Part shown: piece after piece, positions 6,279-8,474 of the stretch
Layout of the letters: each line of letters opens with the position of its first letter
Numbering within the stretch: position 1 is the first letter of the stretch
IMG/VR virus record: IMGVR_UViG_2711768000_000004
Source: a virus
Taxonomy: Duplodnaviria; Heunggongvirae; Uroviricota; Caudoviricetes
Length of the DNA stretch: 10,290 nt
Strand: one strand, 5' to 3'
The notes under the pieces: model-generated
What the model was told of the DNA's origin: nothing
Seen by the model: the letters and a program-made list of their open reading frames with translations, nothing else
The model's database searches: none
Translations under genes and position numbers: made by a program

Positions 6279-6353
<75 letters not shown>

Positions 6354-6356
6354 ATA

Positions 6357-6432
<76 letters not shown>

Positions 6433-6434
6433 GC

Positions 6435-6511
6435 TGGCCCACCACCGAGGACTCGAACCTCGCACCGTCAACTTAGAAGGTTGATGCTCTATCCGGATGA
6501 GCTAGTGGTGG
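6435..6511 (-). tRNA. tRNA-Arg (anticodon UCU), argN-like
   Basis: CCACCACTAGCTCATCCGGATAGAGCATCAACCTTCTAAGTTGACGGTGCGAGGTTCGAGTCCTCGGTGGTGGGCCA. Acceptor stem CCACCAC/GTGGTGG, anticodon stem TCAAC/GTTGA with loop CTTCTAA, T arm CGAGG-TTCGAGT-CCTCG, encoded CCA. Confidence 0.85.
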
Positions 6512-6512
6512 T

Positions 6513-6589
6513 TGGTGGCCCTTGCTGGACTTGAACCAGCGACCTGGCGATTATGAGTCGCTCGCTCTGACCAACTGAGCTAAAGGGCC
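6513..6589 (-). tRNA. tRNA with CAU anticodon (Ile2/lysidine type, ileX/ileZ-like; Met not excluded)
   Basis: GGCCCTTTAGCTCAGTTGGTCAGAGCGAGCGACTCATAATCGCCAGGTCGCTGGTTCAAGTCCAGCAAGGGCCACCA. Anticodon loop CTCATAA. Very similar to my recollection of E. coli ileX. Encoded CCA; a 27-43 A-C mispair in the anticodon stem. Confidence 0.8.
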
Positions 6590-6600
6590 GGAGGCAGAAT

Positions 6601-6629
6601 AATAACCATATGTCATCACATCTGCAAAC
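6601..6629 (-). promoter_or_regulatory. Candidate sigma70 promoter for the tRNA cluster
   Basis: Minus strand TTGCAG (6629-6624), 17 bp, TATTAT (6606-6601). The first tRNA 5' end (6589) lies about 12 nt downstream of the -10. Confidence 0.4.
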
Positions 6630-6677
6630 TCATCTGACCACCAGCACGTTTAACGTCCTGTGCCGTTTTTCAGGTAT

Positions 6678-6703
6678 AAAAAAACCCGCTCATCGGCGGG
6701 TTT
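6678..6703 (-). terminator. Rho-independent terminator (minus strand) upstream of the tRNA cluster
   Basis: Minus strand AAACCCGC-cgatga-GCGGGTTT followed by TTTTTTTA. Stem is 5-8 bp, loop 6 nt, T tract at 6684-6678. Confidence 0.55.
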
Positions 6704-6773
6704 AAGCTGTGTGGCGTAGTAACCACTCTTAACAGGATATTCAACTTTTTACGATCGTAAAGTTTTCGGAAAA

Positions 6774-6934
6774 NNNNNNNNNNNNNNNNNNNNNNNNNNN
6801 NNNNNNNNNNNNNNNNNNNNNNNNNNNNNNNNNNNNNNNNNNNNNNNNNNNNNNNNNNNNNNNNNNNNNNNNNNNNNNNNNNNNNNNNNNNNNNNNNNNN
6901 NNNNNNNNNNNNNNNNNNNNNNNNNNNNNNNNNN
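6774..6934. other. Unresolved sequence (161 N)
   Basis: Run of n characters inside or just downstream of the ORF6N-domain gene. Confidence 1.
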
Positions 6935-7252
6935 CCACGCCTGATCGGTTTCGAGCATTTTGGCGTGACGGGCTGCGCCACGTTCTGTCCAGAGGATGAG
7001 GGAGCGAACGTTACGGGCAATTTTCACAGAAACTCTTAAAGAGTTTTCGTTCTTCAACTCTCGTAACGCATCACCTTCTATCAGGAAAAAATGTTTACCT
7101 TCTATAAACCGTTCTTTGTTTCGATTGAAATTGTTTGTCAAACGCTGGCGCTCTGTTCCGTACAAATCAGCCAGCAGCTCTGTTGTCATGACAGGAAGAT
7201 GGTTATGCGTAAGTGACGGGAGTTTTTCAATAGACGTGCGATTCATAGACAT
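6935..7252 (-). CDS. ORF6N-domain protein (KilA-N/ORF6N-type phage DNA-binding, antirepressor-like), 3' end lost in N gap
   Basis: ATG at 7252-7250 with AAAGGA upstream. The 105 aa before the gap (MSMNRTSIEKLPSLTHNHLPVMTTELLADLYGTERQRLTNNFNRNKERFIEGKHFFLIEGDALRELK...RSLILWTERGAARHAKML) resemble the ORF6N domain pattern as I recall it. Confidence 0.55.
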
Positions 7253-7389
7253 GTCCTTTCGAATATTTTGATTTACCCCTTTTGAGAGGGTGACCGGGCG
7301 CTCAAAACCGTCGAAAGTCGGCGGGCGTATTTCCATTGCTGGTATTGTATTAGCCGCACACCCGGTCATAAACCAAGAATTCTGGACAC

Positions 7390-7417
7390 AAAAAAACCAC
7401 ATGGCTATCGGGTGTGG
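7390..7417 (-). terminator. Terminator/attenuator-like hairpin in the leader of the ORF6N gene
   Basis: Minus strand CCACA-cccgatagcca-TGTGG followed by TTTTTTT (7396-7390). Lies about 30 nt downstream of the second promoter. Confidence 0.45.
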
Positions 7418-7452
7418 ATACCGCTTTCGAGGTGTTTTGAGCACCGCGGGGA

Positions 7453-7481
7453 AATGTAAACTGCAAACCTGAAACTGTCAA
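7453..7481 (-). promoter_or_regulatory. Near-consensus sigma70 promoter (second module)
   Basis: Minus strand TTGACA (7481-7476), 17 bp, TACATT (7458-7453). Confidence 0.5.
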
Positions 7482-7607
7482 CACCGTCAGGTTCCAATCA
7501 TCGGGTGGTGAGACGCACAGGGTTGGAACTACCGGGAAACCGACCGGCGAGCTTTTCAGCTCCCCCATGCGCCCCACCATAATTCAGATGTGCGCGTGCA
7601 TACGACA

Positions 7608-7630
7608 ATAAAAAACACGCTCGCGGCGTG
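7608..7630 (-). terminator. Rho-independent terminator, candidate tR'
   Basis: Minus strand ACACGC-cgcga-GCGTGT followed by TTTTTATT. About 75 nt downstream of the promoter that abuts Q. Confidence 0.6.
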
Positions 7631-7692
7631 TGTCTGTCGCGGTCTCTATCCGGGGTTCCAATCCCGACGCCAGATTTTGCTGGCGCGTGAGG

Positions 7693-7722
7693 AATATAGC
7701 CCCGGACAATGTGTCTGGTCAA
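7693..7722 (-). promoter_or_regulatory. Candidate late promoter PR' with adjoining Q-utilisation region
   Basis: Minus strand TTGACC (7722-7717) begins 5 nt after the Q stop codon; -10 TATATT (7698-7693) at an 18-bp spacing. Initial transcribed region forms the hairpin CGCCAG-caaaat-CTGGCG. Position matches PR' in lambdoid phages. Confidence 0.55.
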
Positions 7723-7726
7723 GCAC

Positions 7727-8113
7727 CTACATAATTCGTTCTACGTATCTGTCCATCTCCAGCCGGATATCAAGCATCATCAACATGCCATCAATAACCC
7801 CTTCCGCTTTCTGCAGGCGCTTGCCAATACAGGTATCCGAACACCCATGTTTCCGTGCCAGACTCATAAAAGTCATTCCACCTACGTAATAATCCACCAG
7901 CAAATCGTGCAAATCCTGATTTTTCTTGTTCAACCGGGCCATACAGCCACAAATTATCATTGCATCATCATCAGAACACTGAGGGCGTGATTTCACTTTC
8001 GACGGAATTAACCCTTTAAAACCAGCAGCGATCGACGCCCAGGATACATCTTCATGAGTGTTTGCAGCCCAAGCCCCCCACCGTTCCATAACCTGCTGAA
8101 TATCACGCGCCAT
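7727..8113 (-). CDS. Q: Late-gene antiterminator Q (QuuD / DLP12-type)
   Basis: [61 protein letters not shown]... closely matches E. coli QuuD as I recall it. ATG at 8113-8111 with AGGTGA upstream; overlaps the rusA 3' end. Confidence 0.9.
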
Positions 8114-8474
8114 CGTTATCACCTGTGATTTCATAAATCTTCACGCCCAGTCGCCCACCAGGAACGAGCTGACCGCGCACAATATTGATTTCATCAAACT
8201 GCTCGTCGTCTATGAGTAGTCCGGCATGCGTCAGCGCATCCAGTGGTGCTTTCAGGATATTGTCCAGGTCACGACGGCGCTTATCCGGTGGCTCTGCAAT
8301 AATCTTTATCGCCAGCCTTCCGGACAGGTTTAATTTCAGCCGCTGCTGGCGAACAATTAGCGTCACATCACGGCGATAACGCTCACCAACTTTTGATACA
8401 AAATATGTGCTGCCACGACGTCGCCAGTAAGTATTCACCGTCGGCGGATAAGGTAAAATAAACTCATGGCGCAT
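8103..8474 (-). CDS. rusA: Holliday-junction resolvase RusA
   Basis: 123 aa, [21 protein letters not shown]...[24 protein letters not shown], typical RusA. Start ATG (8474-8472) overlaps the upstream gene stop (ATGA). Confidence 0.95.

Follow-up and report, generated by a model that had tools for sequence, protein, structure and literature searches.

Why would a phage place two complete promoter-plus-terminator modules in series between its antiterminator gene Q and the next gene? The question is posed by a 10,290-nucleotide (nt) stretch of DNA from a virus of the Caudoviricetes (IMG/VR record IMGVR_UViG_2711768000_000004), here called the window, in which the genes and both modules all lie on the minus strand and the gene following the modules encodes an ORF6N-domain protein (Table 1). 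A first-pass annotation had placed two promoters in this spacer, each followed by a hairpin and a U-tract, and we recover all of these elements on the minus strand at the same coordinates. As an inventory, that annotation was sound for the two modules and incomplete beyond them, having overlooked an 84-nt C4 RNA, an sRNA-Xcc1 RNA and a further module at 6761..6675, which brings the promoter/terminator modules in series to three. We consider it likely that the spacer consists of two tandem antisense-RNA units of the type found at immI of phage P1, carried as one cassette between Q and the late promoter, and that the second unit controls the ORF6N gene.

Specifically, the promoter of module 1 combines TTGACC (7722..7717) and TATATT (7698..7693) with an 18-nt spacer, and that of module 2 combines TTGACA (7481..7476) and TACATT (7458..7453) with a 17-nt spacer. 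Each matches the consensus at 10 of 12 positions, and the two are the best sigma-70 matches of the window. Consensus matches by themselves are only suggestive and count as weak evidence; the window contains three sites with at least 10/12 matches compared with 1.0 ± 0.9 in dinucleotide shuffles, 5% of which reach three. Downstream of its promoter, module 1 has two 5' hairpins and then a terminator stem (7631..7615) with a U-run ending at 7610, and module 2 has a hairpin formed by CCACA, an 11-nt loop and UGUGG (7417..7397) and followed by U7 (7396..7390). An Rfam scan places isrK, c4-a1b1, C4 and sRNA-Xcc1 in series on the minus strand, each above its gathering score.

Module 1 is the known gene for the small RNA (sRNA) IsrK, which provides the a1/b1 leader for a C4 antisense RNA of the P1 type. 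The c4-a1b1 target motif (RF03163; 7699..7647, 50.1 bits, gathering 46.7) overlaps isrK, in which the b1 site UUGGAAC (7661..7655) occupies a hairpin loop and the a1 site GAGACCG lies at 7646..7640. The C4 RNA, whose fold has a z score of -5.0, contains a' CGGUUUC (7542..7536) and b' GUUCCAA (7529..7523); b1 is complementary to b', and a1 pairs with a' with one G-U. In the Salmonella prophage Gifsy-1 and in phage Nil2, the b specificity is ACGCCAA/UUGGCGU at all three positions, and b', b1 and b2 of the window differ from it together.

Table 1. Features of the Q-to-ORF6N region and its downstream flank, in the order of minus-strand transcription
Feature	Coordinates	Strand	Evidence
Q antiterminator, Q21/Q933W family	7727..8134	-	Pfam PF06530, E = 3e-52
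P_isrK promoter, TTGACC-18-TATATT	7693..7722	-	Same promoter before isrK in Gifsy-1, Nil2 and E. coli EC12
IsrK sRNA (module 1)	7610..7686	-	Rfam isrK RF01394, 77.5 bits (gathering 50)
C4-type antisense RNA, STnc1160 homologue	7501..7584	-	Rfam C4 RF01695, 71 bits (gathering 45)
Unit 1 b2 site UUGGAAC, just after C4	7491..7497	-	Complementarity to C4 b'
P2 promoter of module 2, TTGACA-17-TACATT	7453..7481	-	Consensus match and family conservation
Module 2 leader RNA	7390..7446	-	Complementarity, fold, family conservation
sRNA-Xcc1 RNA	7284..7367	-	Rfam RF02221, 77.4 bits (gathering 53)
Xcc1 downstream targets, b2 CUCAAAA 7286..7280 and a2 UCGAAAG 7262..7256	7256..7286	-	Complementarity
ORF6N-domain gene, AnrP-like putative antirepressor	6775..7246	-	Pfam ORF6N, E = 2e-21
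PR' region homologue, third promoter/terminator module	6675..6761	-	85% identity to H-19B post-Q stretch

The second unit is built from the module 2 leader and the sRNA-Xcc1 RNA (hereafter Xcc1). Its leader carries b1 GGUGCUCAAAAC (7445..7434), with the core CUCAAAA in a hairpin loop, and a1 UCGAAAG (7430..7424), followed by an invariant GCGG. In Xcc1, a' CUUUCGA (7317..7311) forms the loop of hairpin 2, b' GUUUUGAGCGCC (7308..7297) lies in the junction, and the 3' tail reads ACCC. The loop is complementary to UCGAAAG both at a1 in the leader and at a2 downstream, where the site overlaps the AAGGA Shine-Dalgarno (SD) sequence of the ORF6N gene. The single-stranded junction sequence UUUUGAG is complementary to CUCAAAA at 7441..7435, in the loop of the first leader hairpin, where pairing can be extended to 12 bp, and again at b2, just past the 3' end of Xcc1. 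In EC12, which has the same layout, the loop and both a sites are switched jointly, to CUACUGA in Xcc1 and UCAGUAG at a1 and a2, and Nil2 provides a third specificity, CUACUUG with CAAGUAG. The predicted duplex between Xcc1 and the leader reaches -47 kcal/mol compared with -29 ± 4 kcal/mol for shuffles, whereas that between C4 and the leader is no better than shuffles.

This joint switching extends across the Xcc1 family. Viral contigs were scanned with a pattern derived from the conserved Xcc1 core, and 91 distinct RNAs were parsed. Adjacent b1-a1 sites were found upstream at 73 of the 91 loci, adjacent b2-a2 sites downstream at 57, and both pairs at 56; in 870 non-cognate controls, the corresponding frequencies were 7.4%, 2.9% and 0.3%. 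The longest perfect complement is likewise longer in an RNA's own flanks than in those of other loci (8.1 versus 6.3 nt upstream and 7.3 versus 5.8 nt downstream). The 56 loci with both pairs contain 44 distinct a' sequences, which co-vary with their targets, and a2 abuts the SD across the family, with the start codon 8-11 nt further in most loci. The pattern also recurs in Pseudomonas, Neisseria, Bartonella, Paraburkholderia and other bacteria, with both pairs present at 34 of 76 candidate loci in bacterial genomes. Rfam confirms sRNA-Xcc1 in 18/18 related loci tested; only two of these 18 also contain isrK and C4, and the leaders match no Rfam family.

These counts bear on the explanation that the module 2 RNA and Xcc1 are ordinary trans-acting sRNAs with host targets, their complementarity to the flanks being incidental. 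Passages in the literature citing sRNA-Xcc1 do describe it as trans-acting and HrpG/HrpX-controlled, and phage leader RNAs with other roles are known, as IsrK and StxS illustrate. The flank complementarity cannot be incidental, however, because both site pairs occur at more than half of the viral loci compared with 0.3% of controls and involve 44 loop sequences, and loops as variable as these argue against a conserved host target. We regard this explanation as very unlikely; an additional host role of Xcc1 beside flank pairing is possible.

The leader elements are conserved as well. A hairpin with a U-run lies between a1 and Xcc1 at 69 of 73 loci compared with 5.7% of control windows, and a promoter with at least 8/12 matches lies upstream of b1 at 66 of 73 loci compared with 15% of controls, its -10 element usually ending 10-15 nt before b1. 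Because of this conservation among related loci, we judge module 2 to be real. Using the conserved loop motif and the U-run as anchors, the leader hairpin is fully paired at 48 of 67 loci, with 14 different stems. RNAalifold, applied to 43 leaders aligned with MAFFT, predicted no pairs, since this alignment left the stems out of register; the anchor-based count was used instead.

Conservation of these elements also weighs on a purely cis-acting RNA switch, in which a1b1, a'b' and a2b2 would pair within one read-through transcript and neither a diffusible antisense RNA nor a decoy would exist. All complementary segments do lie within 200 nt on one transcript, and the isrK-orf45 read-through RNA of Gifsy-1 has two alternative structures, one of them translationally silent, and compensatory mutations support this. 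Yet a cis-only switch has no need of a separate leader promoter and terminator, and these are kept at 66-69 of 73 loci; moreover, the long closing stem of Xcc1 and its NCC tail, which follows the closing stem in 76 of 91 Xcc1 RNAs, point to excision as a separate RNA. P1/P7 c4 reportedly acts in trans as an immunity factor (Citron and Schuster 1990). In Gifsy-1, IsrK is transcribed from a promoter of its own and ends at a leaky terminator; transcripts that pass this terminator yield the orf45-anrP message together with a stable processed STnc1160, and IsrK activates anrP translation in trans (Hershko-Shalev et al. 2016, PMC4825925). We consider a switch acting only in cis unlikely.

The protein under proposed control fits the pattern of the family. 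Nine Pfam families were found among 33 downstream proteins, all of them phage antirepressor-type domains (P22_AR_N/C, Rha, KilA-N, Bro-N, ORF6N/ORF6C, AntA and ORF11CD3). In the window, the ORF6N gene starts at ATG 7246..7244 or 7252..7250. An N mask at 6775-6934 covers its 3' half and true stop, and the listed open reading frame (ORF) end at 6749 is an artefact of reading through this mask. An identical viral contig (L038) supplies the full-length protein of 189 amino acids (aa), which shares 49% identity with the ORF6N-type protein AnrP of Gifsy-1, whose expression raises antQ transcription and induces the Gifsy-1 prophage (PMC4825925).

The sequence itself shows the anatomy of the units, the complementary sites and how they co-vary, a promoter and terminator that are conserved, and cargo of antirepressor type, and from these we propose how the cassette may work. 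Each unit would comprise a constitutive sigma-70 promoter, a short leader with b1 and a1 as target mimics, a leaky intrinsic terminator, a tRNA-like antisense RNA arising from read-through and processing, and a second copy of the sites, b2 and a2, downstream. Antisense-RNA processing, action in trans, translational repression and a decoy role of the leader are modelled here on P1 c4 and Gifsy-1 IsrK. P2 would fire constitutively, most of its transcripts stopping at the weak leader terminator to give an RNA of ~57 nt that displays b1 and a1. Transcripts that read through would carry Xcc1, which is probably excised as a tRNA-like RNA, since it has a long closing stem and an ACCC tail and C4 is a known RNase P substrate (PMC2190699). 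By binding b2 and a2, Xcc1 would block the SD, and the AnrP-like antirepressor would be left untranslated in lysogeny. The leader is, over much of its length, complementary to Xcc1 and could therefore act as a decoy; once terminated, it would titrate Xcc1, with the ratio of leader to antisense RNA setting antirepressor synthesis. Additionally, unit 2 may receive extra transcription that reads through from unit 1. The first-pass annotation had offered an attenuator or a small RNA gene among its options for module 2, and the module is best read as both at once, a leader/decoy RNA with the leaky terminator of an antisense unit acting on ORF6N.

Modules 1 and 2 could instead belong to the Q antitermination system, module 1 being PR' with qut and tR' and encoding a 6S-like RNA, as that annotation had proposed, and module 2 a second Q-dependent antitermination target. 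Module 1 does begin 5 nt past the Q stop with a promoter, a short RNA and a terminator, and IsrK contains a weak -10-like CAAAAU at ~+8 to +13. However, this CAAAAU lies inside a hairpin loop conserved in the Rfam isrK consensus, and Rfam identifies module 1 itself as isrK/c4-a1b1. The same promoter and RNA follow a different Q gene in Gifsy-1, annotated as similar to phage 82 Q, and recur within the Nil2 nin region, where antA, antB, roi, ninG and ninI lie downstream. The module is unchanged in both places, with at least five genes following it in Nil2; its association is thus with C4 and ant and not with Q. Module 2 goes with sRNA-Xcc1 across many Proteobacteria and phage contigs, in many unrelated upstream contexts. 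When compared with the sequence that follows Q in H-19B, neither module has meaningful similarity, and a single match of 20 nt covers just a U-run. Moreover, a homologue of the PR' belonging to the closest characterised Q, that of H-19B/Sp5, lies elsewhere in the window. Q control of the two modules is, on this evidence, highly improbable.

This homologue can be placed by comparison with H-19B and Sakai Sp5. Q of the window, a member of the Q21/Q933W family (family name as in 10.1101/651190), is 81-84% identical to H-19B Q and has lost its last 19 codons, the alignment ending at residue 133/135; in H-19B and Sakai Sp5, Q ends ...GTTTACGATCGTAA. In the Shiga toxin (Stx) phage system, the PR' start has been mapped at a distance of 258 nt before the 3' end of tR', with an RNase E site at +173 (Sy et al. 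2020, PMC7547250). We set the PR' start by these two distances, the Sakai coordinates in the StxS paper being those of an older record version; both fit a start 7 nt past a TATCAT -10 element whose -35 element, TTTACG, lies in the last Q codons. In the window, positions 6761..6673, which lie after the ORF6N gene, are 85% identical to the post-Q stretch of H-19B and Sakai Sp5. The -35 element TTTACG (6761..6756) is located inside a leftover Q 3' end (TTTTCCGAAAACTTTACGATCGTAA) and is followed, after a 16-nt spacer, by the -10 element TATCCT (6739..6734), giving a predicted start near 6727. Further on are a strong hairpin (6703..6682) and a U-run to 6675, with a fold z score of -3.3. The conserved initial transcribed block of PR' occurs once in the window, without a second copy, and an Rfam scan of the H-19B PR' region returned no family. 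Since the PR' homologue lies ~1 kb further on, after ORF6N, the block from isrK to ORF6N is a cassette inserted between Q and PR'; in other phages, the Q-PR' junction carries different cargo. The homologue has a -10-like TACTAC (6721..6716, +7 to +12) in place of the TACATT of H-19B, and its pause function may therefore be weakened.

The region beyond differs further from that of Stx phages. The homologue keeps only the first hairpin of the Stx-phage PR'-tR' interval, and the 258-nt tR' region is replaced by tRNA genes. The four genes (Met-CAU, Arg-UCU, Thr-UGU and Gly-UCC; 6279-6589, minus strand) lie directly downstream, preceded by a promoter-like TTTGCA-18 nt-TATTAT (6599-6628, minus strand), and the cluster resembles the one after tR' in Stx2 phages; a lysozyme gene and further long ORFs follow. 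The PR' transcripts of H-19B and Sakai Sp5 contain, at ~+26 to +50, a hairpin with T7 that looks like a canonical terminator (1995-2019 in our locus L127 and 769-793 in L128). This hairpin is evidently read through in vivo, since the published StxS precursor is 258 nt long.

Unit 1 of the window is reduced in comparison with its relatives. In Nil2 and Gifsy-1, b2 is followed by a2, an SD and an ant gene, with a2 at or just before the SD, and all three elements are missing from unit 1 of the window; between C4 and module 2, a search for a2 found none, b2 being the only site present. Nil2 represents a fuller state, in the order isrK, C4, antA, promoter, leader, Xcc1, antB. Similarity of the window to Stx phages and most E. 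coli ends near 7472, within the module 2 promoter. Besides these sites, a predicted 76-codon ORF (7350-7580, minus strand) starts at an AUG at the C4 5' end, the same position as orf45 of Gifsy-1, crosses the promoter, leader and terminator of module 2 and stops inside Xcc1; it has no Pfam match. A hairpin CCUGA...UCAGG also surrounds the module 2 -35 box (7466-7493, minus strand), with a compensatory CAUGA...UCAUG in EC12; it would form solely in read-through RNA from P_isrK, directly after b2.

The missing a2 and ant gene of unit 1, together with the shortened Q, could be taken to mean that recombination has left the block as a decaying scar that no longer functions, and the tandem arrangement is indeed rare: among 5,426 complete E. 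coli genomes, just one has it at a query coverage of at least 80%. Such decay is hard to reconcile with four RNAs that all exceed their Rfam gathering scores, or with an a'/a1/a2 triplet that is intact in the window and co-switched in EC12 and Nil2, and a second viral contig (L005) has this tandem layout too, there with isrJ. We give hardly any credence to a functionless scar.

Several observations nevertheless weigh against two antisense units of which the second acts on ORF6N. The mechanistic steps at this locus are all inferred from sequence, and the single complementarities are just 7-12 nt each. The module 2 hairpin is thermodynamically weak, with a 5-bp stem and an 11-nt loop, and a terminator scan missed it; the leader folds no better than shuffles (z = +1.1). 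A full-length duplex between Xcc1 and the 5' untranslated region is, with intramolecular structure ignored, no better than shuffles (z = -0.65), full-length duplex energies being uninformative for short sites in this region. Unit 1 lacks an a2 or SD target in the window, and the model gives its C4 no role. The Rfam C4 model gives no score on Xcc1, so common descent of Xcc1 and C4 is not shown. With regard to Gifsy-1, the authors favour IsrK acting on the mRNA and not titrating the C4-like RNA (PMC4825925). Finally, integron-type Xcc1 (Xanthomonas/Rhodanobacter; loci L133, L148, L153, L169, L171, L188, L193, L215 and L238) has b1-a1 and no detectable b2-a2 within ~260 nt, and a b2/a2 search in Xanthomonas-type loci with G-U pairs allowed gave nothing convincing. 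The mechanism may therefore not hold family-wide, and integron-type Xcc1 may have its target elsewhere or work by a different mechanism. At these loci, the RNA is followed by a GC-rich hairpin and then by an SD and a small ORF.

Some features of the family stand outside the pairing model. Two motifs are common to Xcc1 leaders, the GCGG that invariably follows a1 and, in the loop of the terminator hairpin, a conserved CCCG(A/U)(C/A/U)AG (7397-7423 in the window), and neither is explained by pairing; both could be a protein-binding or processing signal. GCGG was considered as an antiterminator partner of the hairpin 5' strand and rejected because it is constant while the stems vary. Pairing of the 5' half of the leader hairpin with the Xcc1 5' strand fits the window (8 bp) and EC12 and seems not to be general at the other loci inspected. 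An AUG lies at the Xcc1 5' end at 54 of 91 loci, only half of the resulting ORFs span the RNA, and no conserved icd/orf45-like upstream ORF was found across the 91 viral loci. In the window, this AUG (7369..7367) is in phase with ORF6N (7244-7369, minus strand) and provides a possible N-terminal extension of 39-41 aa; in EC12 (L001 3767-3890), the same frame gives a 37-codon upstream ORF with its UAG inside a2. Tandem Xcc1 units with different loop specificities also occur, with two in viral contig L107, and a genomic island of Xylella fastidiosa Temecula1 is described in the literature as containing five Xcc1 copies ~385 nt apart. Viral contig L039, which has an Xcc1 unit, contains three CRISPR-DR4 repeats at 2202-2349, ~1 kb away from it.

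Taken together, the observations incline us, by a modest degree, to view the sRNA-Xcc1 family, which is annotated across Proteobacteria, phages and integrons, as a second class of processed, C4-like antisense RNAs that has gone unrecognised. Each member would have a programmable two-site address, made up of hairpin loop and junction, and its own promoter-driven, terminated decoy leader, and the three RNA parts would together act as a switch controlling antirepressor and possibly toxin genes. Here, such a unit would be stacked behind IsrK/C4, the two acting in series as locks between Q and PR' that guard one AnrP-like inducer. Module 1 with C4 is known; the proposed P1-type control by another RNA family, the previously undescribed leader and the tandem stacking appear to be new. 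None of the literature retrieved by our search assigns this mechanism to sRNA-Xcc1, although the original 2011 description (PMC3256417) may hold prior discussion. Beyond annotations, that literature contains a note that Xcc1 precedes an ORF6N gene in some APSE phages, and a 2025 preprint in which Xcc1 is located before symE in the most widespread integron cassette, a position taken there to suggest 'a divergent regulatory mechanism'.

This proposal would give a routinely annotated RNA family without established function a concrete and testable mechanism, and the leader would be a conserved companion element of Xcc1 that RNA family databases lack. With their hypervariable, co-varying sequences, the loop/target triplets suggest that orthogonal RNA repressor/decoy pairs exist in nature as a large set, and such pairs probably decide the cross-reactions of prophages in induction or immunity. 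In prophages like this one, the likely late promoter is moved ~1 kb from the place that position alone would give, and regulatory cassettes can be accommodated at the Q-PR' junction. Since the protein under proposed control is homologous to AnrP, the inducer of Gifsy-1, the locus bears on the induction of Shiga-toxin-type phages.

Among known systems, the lambdoid PR'-qut-tR' region (lambda 6S; StxS, PMC7547250) resembles modules 1 and 2 in having a constitutive promoter and an early terminator downstream of Q. Modules 1 and 2 have no homology to PR', whose true homologue in the window is the third module (6761..6675), and are not tied to Q in other genomes. The sRNA-Xcc1 of Xanthomonas integrons belongs to the same Rfam family (RF02221) and shares the upstream b1-a1 pair with unit 2, and is distinguished from it by showing no downstream pair within ~260 nt and by its treatment in the literature as a trans-acting, virulence-linked sRNA. 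In satellite phage P4, cited as a structural homologue of IsrK (PMC4825925), the seqA - CI RNA - seqC region is similar in layout, with an upstream site, a processed RNA and a downstream site. However, P4 CI causes premature transcription termination, whereas the downstream site of the window overlaps an SD, which points towards translational control.

The isrK-orf45(STnc1160)-anrP region of Gifsy-1 is closer still. Module 1 and C4 are direct homologues of its elements, it follows a Q gene (antQ), a short terminated leader and a read-through mRNA coexist, and the regulated proteins are homologous. On the other hand, in Gifsy-1 the C4-type a2 lies at the anrP SD, whereas this a2 is missing from the window, where P2, the leader and Xcc1 lie between C4 and the gene and add ~200 nt of spacer; the Gifsy-1 Q gene is moreover a different one, annotated as similar to phage 82 Q. 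In comparison with immI of P1/P7, which comprises the c4 antisense RNA, the a1b1 and a2b2 sites, icd and ant, the RNA of unit 2 is an sRNA-Xcc1 with a larger, conserved hairpin 1 and is not recognised by the Rfam C4 model; its leader has its own terminator, no conserved icd-like ORF was found, and its a2 covers the SD of the antirepressor gene itself. What unit 2 shares with immI is the arrangement on one transcript, where a structured and, in unit 2, probably processed antisense RNA is preceded by one set of target copies and followed by another that lies at the site of ribosome binding of antirepressor genes, together with two-site recognition through a' and b', a specificity that co-varies between relatives and a tRNA-like end.

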